Source: Candidatus Zixiibacteriota bacterium
Lineage (GTDB): Bacteria > Zixibacteria > MSB-5A5 > RBG-16-43-9
Length of the DNA: 64,000 nt
Direction of reading: 5' to 3'
NCBI GenBank assembly: GCA_030692925.1
Contig: JAUYBY010000101.1
Coordinates: forward strand, 3,663 to 67,662
Positions 5,081 through 25,785 of the stretch are shown here, piece after piece. How positions within the stretch are numbered: position 1 is the first letter of the stretch; every line of letters starts with the position of its first letter. The position numbers and the translations under genes were made by a program. The notes under the pieces are model-generated. The model had not been told where the DNA came from. It did no database searches and saw only the letters and a list, made by a program, of their open reading frames with translations.

Positions 5081-5539
5081 ATATCTTCCTTTCCTGACAT
5101 TTATTCATGTAAATCATAGTTCCAAATTTATCTTTTTTACGATGAAATAGCAAGAGAAATTTAACCTTAGTTTAAGCAGGGATAATTGTACACCGGCAAA
5201 GAAATTTCCAAATCCGCACAGTCTATCTATTCTCTTTTCTTTTGTGAAGAGGGCGGGGAAAAATTATCCCCTCTCCTGTCAGGAGAGGGTCAGGGTGAGG
5301 TCTCTGTATAGAGACGCATCGCCATGCGTCTCTACAAGTTCTCATCCGGAAGCATCTTTGTCACCCGGAAAGGGTCGTGCTACGAAAGCTCGAGATATGT
5401 TATCATCCCGAAAAAAACGATAAAGATAAGACATCTTCTCGATCCGAAAAAGCACTTAAAAATCATTCACAGCTGACAGAACGGATTAAACGGATAAAAA
5501 ATCGATGATTCTCAGCTTAATCCTGTTAATCAGCTGTGA

Positions 5540-6858: not shown

Positions 6859-6944
6859 GGAGTGTAAACCTTCAGGTTTACCGAGAAATCCGTGTCATTC
6901 TAACTAAGCTTTAAGGGAATGGTAAAACTAAAGTTTTACACTCC
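6859..6944. repeat. palindromic intergenic element, family 1 (GGAGTGTAAAC...GTTTACACTCC termini)
   Basis: terminal inverted repeats ggagtgtaaacc / ttttacactcc; related copies at 7049-7090 (partial), 12016-12091, 18882-18905 (partial), 19836-19896. Confidence 0.7.
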
Positions 6945-10770: not shown

Positions 10771-11598
10771 TTAAAAGTTAAAAGACACCCCGATCGAATT
10801 AATCCCTATTGTGGGTTGAACTGATAGCTTGTTTGATTCTGCATCTTTATTCTTATTGAGTCGAACAATGGTTTTTCCTACCCAGGTTCCAAGCACACCT
10901 CCGAAGAAAACATCTGAGGTGAAATGAACGTTGTCATTCACCCGAGCCCAGGCAGCTAAAAAAGCCAGGCTATAAGCAGCCCAATCGATGAGTCTGTTAT
11001 CATACTGCTCTGCGATTACCGAAGCTAAGGAAAAAGCCGTGGCTGCATGCCCGGAAGGAAAAGACTGAGAGTAAGAGGAAGGCGGGAATTTTAATGCTTC
11101 GAAATGGTAGGCTCCCTTATCCGCAAAAGGCCTGGCTCTACCCACAGTGTGTTTTATCACCTGAGTGATGCCCTGGGTGAACATTACCGACTCCAGAAGG
11201 TAAAGAGCGGTATCCTTTTCTTTTTTGCGTTTAAAGATCAGTCCGCCCAGATAGAAGCCTCCGATAACAAACCTGGGGTAGACTGTCTCCGGTGGAGTGA
11301 CCAGCTTTGCCAGATCGTTCGAGAAACGACTGCGGTTTCTCCGAGCGACCTTCTGCAGCTCCTCATCTGCCAGGAATAATCCGGCTGTTACCGAAGCTAT
11401 CAGAAGAAATTCTAACCTTTCTTTCTTATCCCAGTGAAAGGGCGAGAGAAAAAGGTTCTTGCCGTCATAGTAGAAATGTTTAACTGTACGATCTAAAATA
11501 TTGTCGCTATCAGCTCCCGAAGCAAGGACTCTTCCCGCGACAAAAATTAAACAAATAATAAGAAAGACCGAGAGAACAACTATCTTTACCCTTGACAT
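10771..11598 (-). CDS. PAP2-family phosphatase, membrane protein
   Basis: 275 aa; KxxxxxxRP ... PSGH ... SR..H acid phosphatase motifs (RARPF, PSGHA). Confidence 0.7.
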   Translation of the reverse strand: MSRVKIVVLSVFLIICLIFVAGRVLASGADSDNILDRTVKHFYYDGKNLFLSPFHWDKKERLEFLLIASVTAGLFLADEELQKVARRNRSRFSNDLAKLVTPPETVYPRFVIGGFYLGGLIFKRKKEKDTALYLLESVMFTQGITQVIKHTVGRARPFADKGAYHFEALKFPPSSYSQSFPSGHAATAFSLASVIAEQYDNRLIDWAAYSLAFLAAWARVNDNVHFTSDVFFGGVLGTWVGKTIVRLNKNKDAESNKLSVQPTIGINSIGVSFNF

Positions 11599-11660
11599 CG
11601 AGGCATAATATATGTTAAAATAGGATTCAAATGCAAGCAGATATTTAAAGAGGAGAGCAT

Positions 11661-11990
11661 ATGGAGATAAAACCCCAACCCTTAAATGTGGAATTGGGCG
11701 AAAAAGAATCAGAGGGAATATATTCTAATTTAGCCTTAATCACCCATTCACCCTCAGAGATCATCATCGACTTTGCGCGGGTGATGCCCGGGATTCCCAA
11801 AGCCAGGGTCTATGCCAGAATCGTTATGACCCCGGCTCATGCCAAGCTGCTTTTGAATGCTCTGGATGACAACATCAAGAAATTCGAATCCCAGTTCGGG
11901 ACAATCAGGCTTTTCGGAAAAGAAGGAAAAGAGATCGGCTTTTCACGGGGATTGACCGATATCTCAGAACCTCCCAAGAAAGAGGATTAA
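11661..11990 (+). CDS. DUF3467-like small protein
   Basis: 109 aa; YSNLALITHSPSEIIIDF pattern typical of DUF3467. Confidence 0.45.
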   Translation: MEIKPQPLNVELGEKESEGIYSNLALITHSPSEIIIDFARVMPGIPKARVYARIVMTPAHAKLLLNALDDNIKKFESQFGTIRLFGKEGKEIGFSRGLTDISEPPKKED

Positions 11991-12111
11991 TTGTAAATAT
12001 ATTGGTTGAGGCACTGGAGTATAAACCTTTAGGTTTATCTCTATGATTTTTCCTTCGACGGACCACAGGTAAAGCTGAAGCTTTACACTCCATTACATCT
12101 GTAATTTCAGC

Positions 12112-12300
12112 AGTTGCTCGATTTATCGAGTACAAAACATTGCCCAATAAATTGGGCGACTACAAAGAACTCTGTAGTTGCTCGATTTATCGAGCCAAAA
12201 CATTGCCCAATGAATTGGGCAACTACAAAGAACTCTGTAGTTGCTTGATTTATCAAGCAAAAAAATCGCCCAATAAATTGGGCAACTACAGTGAAGAACT
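12112..12300. repeat. 3 tandem ~63-bp repeats, each with two palindromes, in the 5-prime leader of the GH57 gene
   Basis: units start 12112, 12176, 12239; palindromes gctcgatttatcgagc and gcccaataaattgggc; unit 3 carries a compensatory double change (gcttgatttatcaagc) preserving the dyad. Confidence 0.8.
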
Positions 12301-12319
12301 TAAAAGAAAGGAACTCAAA

Positions 12320-14059
12320 GTGTCGAATAAAATAGGAAGTTTCACCTTCGTTTTACATTTTCATCTGCCCTACGTTATCGCTCACGGAAAATGGCCTCAC
12401 GGTATGGATTGGTTAAACGAAGCCGCGGCTGAGTGCTACATCCCCATCCTGAATATTTTAAATGAGCTAATAGCCGAAGGATATTCTCCCAAATTAACCC
12501 TGGGAATTACTCCGGTTTTGACCGAGCAGTTGTCTGACGAGTCTTTCAAGTCCGAGCTTTCCTCTTACCTGGAGCAGAAGATCAAAGCGGCAGAGATAGA
12601 CATTCAGGAGTTCACCCGTTATAACCGTGTCAATCTTCTCTCCTTAGCCCAGATGTGGAAAGACTATTATTCCAGGATAAAAAACGATTTCGAAAGCAGG
12701 TATAATCGAAATATAGTTAGAGCTTTTAAAAAGTTGCAGGACGAAGGACATATTGAAGTAATCACCTCTGCAGCTACCCATGGTTATTTACCTTTATTAT
12801 CACAGGATACCTCAGTCCAGGCTCAAGTTAAGCAGGGAGTTGCGACTTACCAGAAATTTTACGGCAGAAAACCCAGGGGAATCTGGCTTCCTGAATGTGC
12901 CTATCGTCCTCGATATAAATGGCTGCCACCGGTTCAGACAGAGGGAATAAAAGAACCTTATCCCCGTAAAGGAATAGATGAATTCCTGACTGAGAATGGA
13001 ATCGAATATTTTATAGTGGATTCTGCGCTTCTAAAAGGCGGAAAGGCTATAGGAGTCTATATTGACCGGTTTCAAGCTTTACAGCAGTTATGGGGACAGT
13101 TTGAAAAAGAATATAAGCCCAGGGAGGAGGAGCTGGACAAAACTCCAAGAGAAGTTTATTTGGTTTCCTCCTCAGTTGAGGGAAAAAAGCCGGTTGCCAT
13201 CTTCACCCGCGACCCGGAAACAGGCTTACAAGTCTGGAGCGGAGAATGGGGTTATCCTGGAGATGGGAACTACTTGGATTTTCATAAGAAACATTTTCCT
13301 GGAGGACACCGCTATTGGAAGGTGACTTCAGCTAAAAGTGATTTAGCAGACAAGTGGGAATATTATCCCAAAGATGCCCAGGCACGTGTTCCAGAAAACG
13401 CAAGCCATTATAAGGGAATAGTCAAGAGACTTTTGAGCGAATATCGTCAGAAGTCCGGAAAAAAGGGAATAGTCTGCGCACCTTATGATGCTGAGCTTTT
13501 TGGCCACTGGTGGTTTGAGGGAACCCAATTTTTAAAACTGGTGTTGAAATACATAGCAGATGATCCGGAATTGGAATTGACCACCTGCTCAGGATTTCTG
13601 GATGAAGTCAAACCCAGTCAGGTGATCTCCATACCTGAAGGCTCCTGGGGAGAAGGAGGTTATCATTACATCTGGCTCAACCAGTGGACCGAATGGACCT
13701 GGAAACATATCTATGAAGATGAGAAAAGGATGCAGAGTCTGGCCAGGAGGTTCAAGGAAACTAAAGATGAGAATCTGCTTAAAATCTTGAAACAAGCTGC
13801 CAGGGAGCTTTTGTTGTTGCAGGCTTCGGACTGGCAGTTTTTAATCTCCACCTGGAGCGCCAGAGATTATGCGGAGCTAAGGGTTTCCGAGCATCATCAG
13901 AATTTTAAAAGGCTTTCTGAGATGGCGGAAAAATATGGTAAAGGCGACTATGTAGACCAAGGCGAGTGGACTTTCTTAGGCGATTGCGAAGCCAGGGACA
14001 ATCTATTCAAAGAGATAAAGCTGGAATGGTTTGCTGAGGTAGAGTACCCGGTAGAATGA
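12320..14059 (+). CDS. GH57-family 1,4-alpha-glucan branching enzyme
   Basis: HFHLPYV GH57 signature. Start moved to GTG 12320 (AGGA RBS 7 nt upstream) because the 60 aa upstream in the ORF track are translated tandem repeat. Confidence 0.8.
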   Translation: MSNKIGSFTFVLHFHLPYVIAHGKWPHGMDWLNEAAAECYIPILNILNELIAEGYSPKLTLGITPVLTEQLSDESFKSELSSYLEQKIKAAEIDIQEFTRYNRVNLLSLAQMWKDYYSRIKNDFESRYNRNIVRAFKKLQDEGHIEVITSAATHGYLPLLSQDTSVQAQVKQGVATYQKFYGRKPRGIWLPECAYRPRYKWLPPVQTEGIKEPYPRKGIDEFLTENGIEYFIVDSALLKGGKAIGVYIDRFQALQQLWGQFEKEYKPREEELDKTPREVYLVSSSVEGKKPVAIFTRDPETGLQVWSGEWGYPGDGNYLDFHKKHFPGGHRYWKVTSAKSDLADKWEYYPKDAQARVPENASHYKGIVKRLLSEYRQKSGKKGIVCAPYDAELFGHWWFEGTQFLKLVLKYIADDPELELTTCSGFLDEVKPSQVISIPEGSWGEGGYHYIWLNQWTEWTWKHIYEDEKRMQSLARRFKETKDENLLKILKQAARELLLLQASDWQFLISTWSARDYAELRVSEHHQNFKRLSEMAEKYGKGDYVDQGEWTFLGDCEARDNLFKEIKLEWFAEVEYPVE

Positions 14060-14277
14060 AGTTTTTGTAGGGACAGAACACTGTTCTGTCCTTACATTTA
14101 TATCAATAAGAATGGAAGGCTGAAGCCTTCCGCTACACAAGAAATGTAGCGGAGGTCTTCAGACCTCCATCTTCTAGTAGACGTAGAGCGGCCCTTTCAG
14201 GGTCGCCAAAATATAAAGCGATGCTAAAAGTCTCAAGACCTTGACGGCCTCGCACTACGTCTTAACCCCTCCCCTAC

Positions 14278-14341: not shown

Positions 14342-15553
14342 TTAGAATGTGAAAACGGCAGACACGGTCCCGAAAAGATTTCTTTGAATTCCGCTCAGCA
14401 AATAGGTACCTTCAAAGAAATTATCCTCGCCAATAGTAGCATCCACCTGGAACTTGGAGAACTTGAATCCCACACCCAGACCGATGAAATCCTGAGAACT
14501 CGGGCTGGAGAAACGCCCTTTCTCTTCGAAGAAAAAGGCTGAATTGGAGGGGTGCCATTTATCCTCGAAGCGTCCGAACTCTTTTTCCATTCCCATCCTG
14601 GCGGTTAGCCATTTGGTCAGCTCATATTCCACCCCCAAGTTGAAACCGGGCATAAACCACTCGGTGTATTCATCGGTGATAAATGTGGTATCCGTCTCAT
14701 CTGTCCATCTCATCCGGGTAAGGTTCAACCCACCTACTACCATCCCTTTATCCAGCTTAAGATTTCCACCTAAACCGACGATGAAAAAGCTCTCTTTAAA
14801 ATCTCCAGTAGAAGAATTCCCTGCCTCGGCACCGGTTCCTTTTAAGGAGATAGATTCACTGCCGAAAGCAAACAGTGGAACCATCTGGAAATCATCTGTG
14901 ACCTGGAAAAACCCTCTGGCGCCAAACTGAATCCCGTTTCCACCGTCAGTCTCTAAAGTACTGGTGGCTCCTGCATCAGTATTAGTCAGCTTTCCGCGGT
15001 CAAAATTAAGTCTCAGCATACCTTCGATCTCATGTTTTTCCATCAGATTGAAAACAAAACCACCGGTGAGCGCTGTGTTCCCGGATGAATTTTCCTCCGA
15101 ATAATCAACTCCATTTTTGTATTCCTGTTTGTTCCCGGCATGATACAGACTTATGCCTAAACGGAGCTTTTCAAAATCGTAGGATGCCATAAGGTCAAAT
15201 GGATTTATCGGGCTGGGGAAACGATAATAATTAAAATCCGTGGAAACAAACCGGTTCAGGGTCAGACCTAAGGATAATCCTTTATACAGCTTGTAATTTA
15301 TTCCTAAGAATTGATCTTCCGGGGTAAACTGCTCAGTTCCCTTTTCAAAACTGTTGTAGAATCCCAGCTCTCCGTAGACCGTGTTAGTGTACATCCCTAA
15401 ATAGGCAGGGTTGGCGTAGATGTGATAAACGTCCTTGAAGAAATAGTCTGCGTTACCCAGACTTCTGATGCGAGCCAAAGTTGCAAACGCAGAACTGCCG
15501 ATCAAAATCACGAGAAGCAGTGTCACAGTTGAAAGTAGTATAAAGCGTTTCAT
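14342..15553 (-). CDS. outer-membrane beta-barrel protein (porin-like)
   Basis: 403 aa; signal peptide, alternating amphipathic strands, C-terminal ...VFTF aromatic terminus. Confidence 0.6.
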   Translation of the reverse strand: MKRFILLSTVTLLLVILIGSSAFATLARIRSLGNADYFFKDVYHIYANPAYLGMYTNTVYGELGFYNSFEKGTEQFTPEDQFLGINYKLYKGLSLGLTLNRFVSTDFNYYRFPSPINPFDLMASYDFEKLRLGISLYHAGNKQEYKNGVDYSEENSSGNTALTGGFVFNLMEKHEIEGMLRLNFDRGKLTNTDAGATSTLETDGGNGIQFGARGFFQVTDDFQMVPLFAFGSESISLKGTGAEAGNSSTGDFKESFFIVGLGGNLKLDKGMVVGGLNLTRMRWTDETDTTFITDEYTEWFMPGFNLGVEYELTKWLTARMGMEKEFGRFEDKWHPSNSAFFFEEKGRFSSPSSQDFIGLGVGFKFSKFQVDATIGEDNFFEGTYLLSGIQRNLFGTVSAVFTF

Positions 15554-18698: not shown

Positions 18699-18896
18699 AC
18701 TTCCTCCTTTACCAAAGCTTGAACTAAATCTAAAAAATCGCTGTAATCTATAAGCCCTGTTTCAGGTTGTCAAGTCAAATTAGATTCTTTTCTAAGTTTT
18801 CAGATTAATTTTGTCTAGATTAATCAAAGTGGAGTATAAAGCTTTAGCTTTATCTTCAATCAACTGGGGAAAAATCAATTTGATAAACCTAAAGGT

Positions 18897-19814
18897 TTAT
18901 ACTCCAATGTTTTTTCCCAGAAACATCTCAATCCCTGAGAATCTGCTTTTCATACCTGCAAGGAAATTAGCATATTCACAAGAAAGTTCAGTGTTACTGG
19001 TTTTGAGATAAGCCAAAAGGAAACCCGATGAGAAAACGTCTCCACAGCCTGTAGGGTCTACAAAATCTCTCACTTTTAAAGCAGATGTCTGGTAACGGAT
19101 TATTTTTTTACTTTTTTTGTAGTAGAGCAAAGCTCCTTTTCTTCCGCGGGTAACCAGTAAGATATCAGGACCAAGATTTAAAATTGTCCGTGCAAATTCC
19201 TTCATCTCATTTTCTGGTTTCAGATGACTCCCCGATATTATTTGCATCTCTTTGAAGTTCATCTGAACTATATCTGCTATTTTCAGATATTCTCTCCATA
19301 AAGCTGGAGCTTTAAAAAATCTTTTACCGTTTTTTGTAATTCCTAATATTAAAGAATGCACATCTATGAAGATTGGAGAGTGAGTCTTTGCTTTTATCTT
19401 TCTAAGAGTATCCAGACCTATGTCGAAACCGGAGATAAAATTAATCAGGAGGTAATCGCTATCAAGATATGGTTTGACCTGATGAAACTCAATTTTCGGG
19501 ACCAAATTTTTTAAGATTTCCTTTTTGTGCCATCTTCGGTCATAGAAAAGGTGGACATGGTTATTCTTCCCTCCTACTCTGGATATTCCGCTCAGCTCGA
19601 TATTGTCAAACTCTTTTAAATAGAAGATTACTCTTTTATAAATGTCAGACCCCAAATTGCACACAGGTGAGATTATAATGTCTTGCTGAGTTGCTTGTGC
19701 CAGGGGAAGAACGTTGTAAAGGATGCCGCCGAAACTTCTGGTTACCTTTCCATTCGGAAAAGTAATTGTGTCTTTTGTAATTGTTCCGATAACTGCCAGT
19801 TTAATCGGTCTCAT
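18897..19814 (-). CDS. PfkB-family sugar kinase
   Basis: ribokinase-like GG and DPTGCGD motifs; start set at internal Met (MRPIKLAV) because the upstream 28 codons overlap a family-1 repeat. Confidence 0.6.
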   Translation of the reverse strand: MRPIKLAVIGTITKDTITFPNGKVTRSFGGILYNVLPLAQATQQDIIISPVCNLGSDIYKRVIFYLKEFDNIELSGISRVGGKNNHVHLFYDRRWHKKEILKNLVPKIEFHQVKPYLDSDYLLINFISGFDIGLDTLRKIKAKTHSPIFIDVHSLILGITKNGKRFFKAPALWREYLKIADIVQMNFKEMQIISGSHLKPENEMKEFARTILNLGPDILLVTRGRKGALLYYKKSKKIIRYQTSALKVRDFVDPTGCGDVFSSGFLLAYLKTSNTELSCEYANFLAGMKSRFSGIEMFLGKNIGV

Positions 19815-19879
19815 AATGAATCGAAAACCCAGACTGGAGTGTAAAACTTTAGTTTTACTTTTTGATTCAATCGGCAAAC

Positions 19880-20914
19880 CTAAAGGTTCGCACTCCAAAC
19901 TTTCGCCACTCCCTCAAAAACCTCCGCCGCCGTAATCTCTTTCATACATCTGAAATGCTTTTCCGGACATTTTTTTCTTCCGTGAATGCCGCAGGGCCGG
20001 CAGTAAAGTTTTTTCTGAATAACCACGTCATTTTTACCAGTGGGCGCAAAACCGAACTCCGGAATGGTTGATCCGAAAATGGCCACTACTGGGACCCTCA
20101 TCGCCACCGCTATGTGCATAGGTGCGGTATCATTGGATAAGATTACATGGCATCTGGAAATCAAAGCTGCAGACTGCAGAGGTGAGGTTTTGCCTGCAGC
20201 TATCAAAGGTTTACTTTTCATATTACTGGCAATCTCCAGACAGAGCTTTTCATCTTCCTTTCCACCAGTGAAGATGACTTTTACGCCCAGTTTTTCAATC
20301 AGAGATTCTGCCACCTCACCAAATCTTTCAGGCAGCCATCTTTTGGTATTCCAGACCGAGCCAGGTGCTATACCTACTATTTTATCTTCTTTCTTGACAT
20401 CCCAGCTTATAAAAAGCTCTTCTATATATTTAAAATCATCCTCAGATGGAAAAAGCTCAGGCAAACAGTCGTTTTCTGGGGGCATATCTGTTTCCAGAAG
20501 AGAAAGATTCCTTTTAGACTCTGGCTGGTTCTGAATATATTTTATCTTTTGAGTAAAAAGAAAAGCTCCAGAGCTTTTATCAAAACCTATTCTCTGCGGA
20601 ATTCTCGCAAGATAAGCTAAGAGAGCGCTACGAAAAGAACGGTGAGGAATAAAAGCCAGATCAAAACCTGAGGCTCTAATTTTTTTCGCCAGGGCAAGGA
20701 AACTGGAAACTCCCTTCTCTTTGTTCTTTTTATCATAGACAATGACCCCGTCTAGATCTGGATTATTCTGCAAAAGCTCCTTCGTCTGCGGAATGAGCAG
20801 GAAAAAGATTTTCGAGTGCGGATATTTTCTTTTTACCGCCTTTATTAAAGGGGTAGTCAGAACCACATCTCCTAAAAAAGCGGTCTGGATGATAAATATT
20901 TTTTGAGGATTCAT
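19880..20914 (-). CDS. waaF: ADP-heptose:LPS heptosyltransferase (GT9)
   Basis: 344 aa; GT9 heptosyltransferase architecture, AFLGDVVLTTPL N-terminus. Confidence 0.75.
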   Translation of the reverse strand: MNPQKIFIIQTAFLGDVVLTTPLIKAVKRKYPHSKIFFLLIPQTKELLQNNPDLDGVIVYDKKNKEKGVSSFLALAKKIRASGFDLAFIPHRSFRSALLAYLARIPQRIGFDKSSGAFLFTQKIKYIQNQPESKRNLSLLETDMPPENDCLPELFPSEDDFKYIEELFISWDVKKEDKIVGIAPGSVWNTKRWLPERFGEVAESLIEKLGVKVIFTGGKEDEKLCLEIASNMKSKPLIAAGKTSPLQSAALISRCHVILSNDTAPMHIAVAMRVPVVAIFGSTIPEFGFAPTGKNDVVIQKKLYCRPCGIHGRKKCPEKHFRCMKEITAAEVFEGVAKVWSANL

Positions 20915-25407: not shown

Positions 25408-25785
25408 CTTATACCTCTTTTTTTATTCTTCACGTCATTGCGAGGAGTCCATTTGGACGACGAAGCCCATCTGGGCTTTGTCTCGCCTACGGCGGACTCG
25501 CAATGACAGAACAACTTGTTTTTCAAGGCTGAAGCCTTGCCCTATGGACTTTTTTACCAGGTGGGTCAGGCATCCTGCCTGACCAGAACAGACAAGATGT
25601 CTGTTCCACCATTTTTTGCTCCGCAATTTGCGGAGCCCTACGATTTTCTCGAACCCTTGAACCCTTTAATCCTTGAATCCTCTCTTATAGCTCGCGTAGG
25701 GGCGGAGTTCATCTCCGCCCCAAGTAGACAGGTGGAGTCAAGCTCCACCCCTACGCAACTTGAACCCTTCTATCCTTGAATCCTA

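Follow-up and report, generated by a model that had tools for sequence, protein, structure and literature searches.

What is a tandem array of palindromes doing in front of a gene for a glycogen-branching enzyme? In the 64-kb stretch of DNA analysed here (the window), taken from a Candidatus Zixiibacteriota bacterium, three 63-bp units with paired dyads lie upstream of a GH57 1,4-alpha-glucan branching enzyme gene. A first-pass annotation, made from the sequence alone, had proposed that they form a reiterated operator or a structured 5′ untranslated region dedicated to that gene. The evidence presented below leads to a different reading, to which we assign a probability of about 0.88: the array is a BIME-like cluster of six GTAG-tagged 22-nt REPs, organized as three head-to-head (REPIN-like) dimers in tandem.

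Anatomy of the array

Tandem Repeats Finder reported 12112-12290 as a tandem repeat with a period of 63, 2.8 copies, 91% matches, no indels and a score of 293, by far the strongest tandem repeat of the window. This confirmed the three units with paired dyads, which are present as originally quoted. Their right boundary had to be corrected. Position 12300 is where a count of 3 × 63 bp would nominally finish, and unit-to-unit homology stops at about 12290/12291, 29 nt before the GTG codon at 12320 rather than the 20 bp given at first. Dyad 1 reads GCTCGATTTATCGAGT in unit 1 (one mismatch), GCTCGATTTATCGAGC in unit 2 and GCTTGATTTATCAAGC in unit 3; relative to GCTCGATTTATCGAGC, both arms of the last are changed in such a way that pairing is kept, just as the first-pass annotation described. 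Dyad 2 reads GCCCAATAAATTGGGC in units 1 and 3 and GCCCAATGAATTGGGC in unit 2, the two forms differing in the loop only. In scans of the whole window, the dyad 1 pattern gave 5 matches (0.36 expected) and the dyad 2 pattern 6 matches (0.65 expected), numbers that were not equalled by any shuffle. A third inverted repeat, CTGTAGTT...AACTACAG, had been missed; its arms surround every dyad pair and also pair from one unit to the next (AACTACAaagaactcTGTAGTT).

Both dyads represent a single 22-nt element, GTAG-TT-GCYYRAT-TT-ATYRRGC, in opposite orientations. Read from its tag, the element comprises GTAG, an unpaired dinucleotide and a stem of 7 bp closed by a 2-nt loop (or, equivalently written, a stem of 6 bp with a TTTA loop). 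The pattern GCNNNATWWATNNNGCRACTAC has six matches in the array, in the orientations −,+,−,+,−,+, against 0.14 expected in the window scan. The plan GTAG-NN-7 bp stem-2 nt loop-stem is found in five of the six copies, and the sixth has GCAG. Each 63-bp unit is thus composed of a head-to-head pair with outward-facing tags and a spacer of 9-10 nt, followed by the 10-nt linker AAAGAACTCT.

The leftmost copy (copy 1, 12110-12131, + strand) is decayed: it carries GCAG for GTAG, has a G.T at the stem base and, with GCTCGA-TTTA-TCGAGT, shows 2 mismatches to the 22-nt element. It is separated by the 10-nt spacer ACAAAACATT from its head-to-head partner, the inverted copy 2 (12142-12163, − strand), which reads GCCCAATAAATTGGGC-GA-CTAC on the + strand. 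Copy 3 (12174-12195, + strand) has the canonical sequence GTAGTTGCTCGATTTATCGAGC and is followed, after the 9-nt spacer CAAAACATT, by the inverted copy 4 (12205-12226, − strand; GCCCAATGAATTGGGCAACTAC). In the last dimer, copy 5 (12237-12258, + strand; GTAGTTGCTTGATTTATCAAGC), whose stem variant CTTGA/TCAAG is what the first-pass annotation called a compensatory mutation, precedes the inverted copy 6 (12268-12289, − strand; GCCCAATAAATTGGGCAACTAC) at a distance of 9 nt (AAAAAAATC). The tail-to-tail linkers at 12164-12173 (between dimers 1 and 2) and at 12227-12236 are identical. The locus therefore displays a BIME-type layout, with alternating orientations, head-to-head spacers of 10, 9 and 9 nt, and two identical tail-to-tail 10-mers.

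RNA folding, which had been suggested as a check, gave the array a minimum free energy of −77.7 kcal/mol, with a z-score of −9.1 relative to shuffled sequence. A single unit folded as single-stranded DNA gave −13.8 kcal/mol (z −5.4).

A dispersed REP family and its transposase

GTAG-tagged REPs are short stem-loops of 20-40 bp with an unpaired GTAG (or a close variant) at one end; they favour sites between unidirectional or convergent genes and occur in sub-families with alternative, complementary stem residues, frequently as head-to-head dimers (Di Nocera et al. 2013, PMC3733652). To find relatives of the array element, 185,579 species-representative genomes (1.2e12 nt) were scanned with GTAGTTGCYYRATTTATYRRGC, for which about 4 matches would be expected by chance according to our own estimate. 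At least 116 stretches of DNA matched. The matches listed carry about 15 phylum-level labels, come from both MAGs and complete chromosomes, and often number several per genome. Among them are Zixibacteria, Poribacteria, Dehalococcoidia/Chloroflexi/Anaerolineae, Omnitrophota, Elusimicrobiota, Nitrospirae/Nitrospirota, Nitrospinota, WOR-3, Ignavibacteria, Planctomycetes/Planctomycetota, Delta- and other Proteobacteria, Clostridia, Terriglobales, Saccharibacteria and others. Most of the matches listed have an inverted partner 6-20 nt away, i.e. they are arranged head to head like the dimers of the window.

Several Zixibacteria MAGs have 2-3 contigs each with a match to the strict pattern among the matches listed. 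In the sister assembly CAZMZF01, copies occur at four of the loci listed: L002, which is the site orthologous to the array, L053 and two in L112. Those beyond L002 are located on two other contigs, by a gene for a sigma-54 activator, between the genes of a beta-helix protein and of a transglycosylase, and in a further intergenic stretch. Within the 64 kb of the source genome covered by the window, no family copy was found beyond the array, and the search for further dyads that was to reveal a regulon yielded none there.

All-against-all clustering of 1,870 ORFs from the matched loci listed revealed no protein family that recurs beside the element; the only families found were generic (for example response regulators, ABC ATPases and SDRs) and lay at kilobase distances. 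Among the matches listed, 20 of 153 elements (13%) are placed inside stop-to-stop ORFs of at least 150 aa, which occupy 80% of the bases, and 69 of 92 elements lie between co-directional ORFs. The window array is likewise situated between two + strand genes, encoding a DUF3467 protein and the GH57 enzyme, and is the largest cluster of the GTAG-TT REP family in the loci sampled. These data show that GTAG-TT-GCYYRAT-TT-ATYRRGC is a dispersed, mostly extragenic family found beside unrelated genes in many phyla.

At three stem positions of each arm, the search pattern specified no more than pyrimidine or purine and did not demand pairing. At these three free positions, 143 of the 153 elements (matches listed) are fully Watson-Crick, where chance would give about 12.5%. 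They fall into six main palindromic variants among the matches listed: CCCAA/TTGGG (45), CCTGA/TCAGG (33), CCCGA/TCGGG (32), CTCGA/TCGAG (14), CTTGA/TCAAG (12) and CTCAA/TTGAG (7). The partner hairpins, which the pattern did not select, show 74-88% pairing per position in the matches listed, compared with 3-82%, mostly well below 60%, when the register is slid. The covariation suggested as a check is therefore present, and this excess of complementary stems indicates that the hairpin is under selection throughout the family and is kept through compensatory stem changes. Judged from sequence, the two-arm change in unit 3 swaps one standard stem form of the family for another (CTCGA/TCGAG and CTTGA/TCAAG) and is not an event specific to this locus. 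The first-pass annotation had taken this change as a signature of selection on either a hairpin or a dimeric protein-binding site; the former holds for the family as a whole, while the free covariation of the stems speaks against the latter.

RAYT genes flanked by REPs are referred to as REPtrons (PMC3733652). Six-frame translations of the fetched loci were searched with an E. coli RAYT query, and candidates were verified with curated models. Two 145-aa Y1_Tnp proteins (PF01797, E 1e-9 to 1e-11, above the Pfam cut-off) were identified directly beside REPs of the family, at loci L019 and L044. The best NCBIfam model for both is REP_Tyr_transpos (NF047646), with 74-76 bits, which is under the equivalog cut-off of 80 and higher than their scores on IS200 models. 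In L019, a complete Poribacteria chromosome, the gene (2248-2685 of the locus) is bracketed by REPs of inverted orientation at 1961, 2742 and 2785. In L044, an Anaerolineae contig, three REPs are located upstream, no more than about 90 nt from the gene, which is cut at its other end by the contig edge. A further locus, L074, contains only a C-terminal RAYT-like fragment.

Annotated Zixibacterial homologues of these proteins share 59-62% identity with them, and identity between the Poribacteria, Anaerolineae and Zixibacteria proteins ranges from 52 to 62%. In two Zixibacterial lineages the RAYT gene lies between carboxyltransferase and biotin-carboxylase genes of a propionyl-CoA-carboxylase-like cluster. 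In L123/L124, also Zixibacterial, the RAYT gene is preceded by GTAGTTGCTCGATTTATCGAGC-aaaaaaagat-GCCCAATAAATTGGGCAACTAC and followed by a near-identical pair, an arrangement that reproduces the window unit almost base for base; the 22-mer of array copy 3 is identical to the one flanking RAYT in L123. L126, also from Zixibacteria, is organized similarly, with family REPs on both flanks, and in both L123 and L126 the TAG stop codon of the RAYT gene is part of the first downstream GTAG. Among solved structures, the L123 protein matches E. coli TnpArep best (4ER8, E 3.9e-8), ahead of ISDra2 TnpA (2XM3, 2XMA, 2XO6), and the HUH and WQPxxxEHxIRN motifs align. No RAYT gene was detected in the 64-kb window by phmmer and tblastn with the E. 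coli, L019, L044 and L123 RAYT queries. The REP family is physically linked to RAYT genes in Zixibacteria, Poribacteria and Anaerolineae, on both sides of the gene in the first two.

The stem base of E. coli REPs, which we take to be GCCKGAT...ATCMGGC-CTAC, resembles the family variant GCCTGAT..ATCAGGC-AA-CTAC. The array further shares with E. coli REPs and BIMEs (GTAG-3) the GTAG tag beside a short palindrome, and the alternation of REPs and inverted REPs with short linkers and tandem reiteration (PMC8266576, PMC3733652). As in E. coli, members of the family are extragenic and often lie between same-strand genes, and the Zixibacterial RAYT, like TnpA-REP/RAYT of E. coli (4ER8), is a cognate HUH/Y1 transposase flanked by REPs. 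The window palindrome is perfect, 16 nt long and free of bulges, with a loop of 2-4 nt, whereas E. coli REPs are imperfect, 29-37 nt long and carry an AA-GC bulge. The family also differs from them in the TT between tag and stem, and in its Zixibacterium host and spread over many phyla (matches listed). In E. coli, such clusters are bound by the host proteins DNA gyrase, IHF and Pol I.

The REP of Marinomonas consists of GTAG, 2 nt and a short perfect palindrome with a TTTA loop (Corneloup et al., PMC8266576). GTAG-TT-GCTCGA-TTTA-TCGAGC of the window follows the same plan, including the loop, as REPtron Mb of Marinomonas sp. MWYL1, which has a group 3 RAYT. The first T and last A of the Mb loop can pair (PMC8266576). 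The stem sequence differs, and the stem is 6-7 bp long in the window but 5 bp in Mb. A dinucleotide between GTAG and the stem is common to the window family, GTAG-1 and GTAG-2 (PMC3733652). Pseudomonas REPINs (GTAG-1) resemble the family in two other respects: spread appears to occur as head-to-head dimers, and RAYT is a single gene at a fixed place, in two Zixibacteria between propionyl-CoA carboxylase subunit genes. Unlike Pseudomonas REPINs, the family has much shorter spacers (6-20 nt in the matches listed) and, in the window, heterodimers made of two different stems, and its abundance looks low, with one locus in 64 kb. IS200/IS605 elements also have a Y1 HUH transposase that recognizes a hairpin, with a tetranucleotide 5′ of the hairpin as a guide (PMC8266576), and both they and MITEs recall the family in including small non-autonomous elements. 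In contrast to IS200/IS605, there is no transposase gene between hairpins at the array locus and the RAYT fits REP_Tyr_transpos better than IS200 models; in contrast to MITEs, the array is devoid of terminal inverted repeats with target-site duplications. A literature search returned nothing relevant on RAYT in these phyla or on the 16-mers, and no description of the family.

The mechanism of spread can be proposed from published RAYT and REP biochemistry. The RAYT would bind the folded, single-stranded REP through the GTAG tag and the hairpin, and would cut at CT or CA beside the REP, thereby spreading dimers around the genome.

Orthologous sites and local expansion

The closest relative, GCA_964570765.1 (L002, 88% protein identity), has exactly one pair at this site and the same right flank as the window (…GGGCAACTACAGTGAAGAACTTAAAA…). 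Its first hairpin has the window stem with the loop TTCG, and its second is partly decayed. The single-pair state is also present in two Logan contigs and one JGI contig (L003, L004 and L129), and a metagenome scan with the right junction of the array, aimed at strain-level copy-number variants, found a single L002-like contig with one unit. In two relatives with 78% identity (L005 and L006) the pair is absent from the array site. It is found instead downstream of the DUF3467 promoter and ahead of the ribosome-binding site of that gene, and one or other hairpin loop carries additional DNA; the window and L002 have nothing at that position. The orthologous site thus holds three dimers in the window, one in L002, L003, L004 and L129, and none in L005 and L006.

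The ancestral state of the array site was a single dimer, as in the closest relative, and the window shows a local expansion from one pair to three. The inter-pair linker (AAAGAACT + CT) contains, as comparison with L002 shows, the right-flank AAGAACT and the left-flank CT of the ancestral single dimer, and joins the one flank to the other; it therefore matches the product of a tandem duplication of the pair with little flanking DNA. The expansion probably proceeded by slipped-strand events or unequal recombination, and may have been favoured by selection. The differences in copy number and position among such close relatives also imply that the element is gained and lost and settles at different sites. 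A neutral minisatellite had been described in the first-pass annotation as an array whose copy number varies freely and whose dyads are not conserved. Copy number does vary here, yet the dyads are conserved, a pattern expected of a REP family and not of a neutral minisatellite.

Gene context and alternative explanations

The GH57 gene (12320-14059, + strand; PF03065 and PF09210) encodes a protein of 579 aa when read from GTG 12320. A 60-codon open frame runs through the array, open from TTG 12140, and had given the gene an N-terminal extension in the six-frame translation. The first-pass annotation rejected this extension, and our results support its choice of GTG 12320 as the predicted start. 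The best 120 GH57 homologues are 548-610 aa long, mostly 577-582 aa, an ATG stands at the aligned position in the closest relative, and the ribosome-binding-site-like GAAAGGAA (12306-12313, + strand), aligned with AGAAAGGAAA of L002, is located 6 nt upstream. On the same grounds, the open frame through the array is best read as non-coding. The ribosome-binding site lies outside the repeat hairpins and is not sequestered by them in the RNA fold. Protein look-ups gave no exact match to the GH57 product with either V or M as its first residue. Judging by the source names of the GH57 homologues, the window comes from a member of the Zixibacteria.

The DUF3467 gene (11661-11990, + strand; PF11950, E 1.1e-26) lies upstream of GH57 as a conserved neighbour. 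In front of it is a sigma-70-like promoter, TTGACA-18-TAAAAT (11592-11621, + strand; 11/12 matches, TG extension), whose sequence is conserved in L002, L005 and L006; the promoter scan found no + strand promoter between the two genes. Relatives retain the gene pair with 110-139 bp between the two genes, compared with 329 bp in the window, where the enlarged spacer contains the array and, filling the remainder, two inverted copies of another small palindromic repeat family (12008-12099; GGAGTRTAAAnCTTTAGnTTTAY at 12016-12038, + strand, and 12069-12091, − strand). A look-up of the DUF3467 product yielded one Logan contig, which breaks inside the array. From this context, the two genes are probably co-transcribed from the promoter at 11592-11621, on a transcript in which the array would form very stable RNA hairpins. 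These could stabilize the DUF3467 portion of the message upstream or lower read-through into GH57, although any such effect on expression would be a by-product of insertion and not the action of a dedicated control element.

Could the hairpins nevertheless owe their retention and amplification to a role in setting the expression of DUF3467 relative to GH57? Such an exapted cis-acting RNA could serve as a 3′ stabilizer for DUF3467, as a processing or attenuation site before GH57, or as both, and this role would add to the REP identity of the array and not replace it. The strong promoter upstream of DUF3467, with none detected before GH57, and the conserved synteny with short spacers are in line with it, as is folding far better than that of shuffled sequence (z −9.1). 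In our reading, the weakened second hairpin of L002 still pairs through G.U on the + strand. In the outer stem, U-A, U.G and C-G pairs are seen across the window, L005 and L006. Effects of REPs on mRNA stability have been reported, and many REPs have been suggested to act as RNA (PMC3733652). Nonetheless, close relatives differ in copy number (3, 1 and 0) and, in L005 and L006, in position, the ribosome-binding site is outside the hairpins and no Rfam family corresponds to the array, so that we consider exaptation rather improbable, with perhaps one chance in eight.

Far less probable is an operator through which a dimeric transcription factor bound at the 16-bp dyads controls the glycogen-branching gene, a reading largely refuted by the present data. 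The perfect 16-bp palindromes and their regular spacing do look operator-like, but the same dyads with GTAG tails occur in many phyla by unrelated genes, with no recurrent neighbour family among the matches listed, and they flank a transposase gene. They are absent at the orthologous site in relatives of 78% identity, and the absence of further copies in 64 kb gives no sign of a regulon. Moreover, the free covariation of the stem bases (six variants among the matches listed) fits a hairpin rather than a base-specific duplex operator. Least probable of all are a neutral minisatellite and a coding N-terminal extension of GH57, for which a period of 63 would correspond to 21 codons. The frame is indeed open from TTG 12140, copy number differs between relatives, and intragenic REP clusters encoding 43-82 aa have been reported (PMC3733652); against this, the best 120 homologues are almost all 570-590 aa long and align from the GTG/ATG, which is preceded by GAAAGGAA, and the repeat units belong to a conserved, structured and dispersed family. 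The proposal of an operator or 5′ untranslated region dedicated to GH57 thus gives way to the REP cluster, since the element stands beside unrelated genes in many phyla, varies in copy number and position, and flanks a RAYT gene.

Other candidates were considered for the array. In an Rfam search of the whole window at the gathering threshold, only a tRNA elsewhere reached threshold, and at an E-value threshold the region 11900-12450 gave only sub-threshold miRNA- and snoRNA-type matches typical of palindromes. A cis-regulatory RNA of GH57 finds no support, given the lack of an Rfam match and the 3, 1 or 0 units at the orthologous site. Terminator-like calls in the array are confined to the − strand, on which no gene runs into it, and an intrinsic terminator was rejected on this ground. 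Repetition extends over the full 63-bp unit and leaves no unique spacers of the CRISPR kind, and the loops are TTTA/TAAA with no GGA, unlike a CsrA-type leader as might be suspected in a glycogen context.

As such, the array is an unremarkable representative of a known class, REP/BIME with RAYT, and the most unusual observation is the breadth of the family across phyla. The occurrence of one REP sequence, near base for base, in about 15 phylum-level groups together with a fairly conserved RAYT might reflect extraordinary age or constraint, or movement between phyla, an interpretation that we offer tentatively and hold with some doubt. If true and not binning noise, it would fit poorly with the usual view of REPIN-RAYT systems as lineage-specific and vertically inherited.

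For the annotation of this genome, a false N-terminal extension is removed from the GH57 gene, and a selfish repeat is no longer to be read as a glycogen-specific regulator. The window records a local amplification of a REP dimer from one to three within a probable operon. Most work on REPs and BIMEs concerns Proteobacteria; our results indicate that Zixibacteria carry classical GTAG-type REP/RAYT systems, and a REP family shared across little-studied phyla together with its transposase would provide material on how REP-RAYT pairs persist or spread.

Array copy number and the surroundings of the GH57 gene

The only other assembly encoding the exact DUF3467 protein of the window is the Logan SRR13727536 contig (L001). 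This contig ends at position 2095, corresponding to approximately 12188 of the window, within the second 63-bp unit of the array, and therefore the count of three units depends on the window assembly alone. Breaks at repeats are normal for k-mer assemblers. Point differences between the units argue against the array being an assembly artefact.

GTAG/CTAC-tagged hairpins of sequence types other than the array REP (e.g. GTAGCGGAGGTCTTCAGACCTC, GTAGGGGCGGAGTTCATCTCCGC and GTAGAGCGGCCCTTTCAGGGTCGC) were also distinguished within the window, at 1071-1093, 14067-14205 and 25619-25754. A similar hairpin, GTAGTGCGACCCTTCAGGGTCGC, is present in a Proteobacteria MAG (L120). One of these clusters begins 8 nt past the stop codon of the GH57 branching-enzyme gene, which is thus bracketed by REP-like clusters. 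Downstream of GH57 lies a 403-aa ORF in the opposite orientation (14342-15553, minus strand), to which no Pfam family could be assigned at E ≤ 0.001. Its position is occupied by other small genes in the relatives, i.e. an OMP_b-brl gene in the closest of them (L002) and a 190-aa ORF without annotation in L006. Further along the window, the segment 34001-42000 has a strongly positive GC skew (+0.16 to +0.32; negative over most of the window) and a reduced G+C content (0.38-0.40). This segment could be a block of opposite-strand genes or a foreign segment.

Other repeat types

A second palindromic family, GGAGTRTAAAnCTTTAGnTTTAY, distinct from the REP, is represented by eight copies in the window (chance expectation 0.01), arranged as four inverted doublets at 6859-6944, 12016-12091, 18831-18905 and 19836-19896, one of which directly adjoins the REP array. 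Stem covariation is found in this family as well (AAACC/GGTTT, AAAAC/GTTTT, AAAGC/GCTTT), and among the fetched loci its occurrence is limited to the close relatives L001, L002, L005, L006 and L053.

In L005 (5491-5533) and L006 (5498-5520), one hairpin loop of the REP pair located upstream of DUF3467 holds additional DNA. The L005 insert consists of CCGCC...GGCGG palindromes, with further copies at 5350 and 5885 of this locus, and looks like a third repeat type nested within REP loops.

RAYT genes and the distribution of the 22-nt REP

Genes encoding REP-associated tyrosine transposases (RAYTs), flanked by REPs of the array family, were identified in two Zixibacteria loci, L123 (2907-3506) and L126 (2893-3432), and in the Poribacteria locus L019 (1961-2806). 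The RAYT gene occupies an identical position in two Zixibacterial lineages, between carboxyltransferase and biotin-carboxylase genes, and in both its TAG stop codon forms part of the GTAG that tags the nearest REP downstream. Between Poribacteria, Anaerolineae and Zixibacteria, the RAYTs share 52-62% identity. The 22-nt REP itself is almost unchanged across approximately 15 phylum-level labels among the matches listed from the scan of genome contigs (loci L007-L122). This near-invariance may reflect either horizontal spread or ancient conservation.
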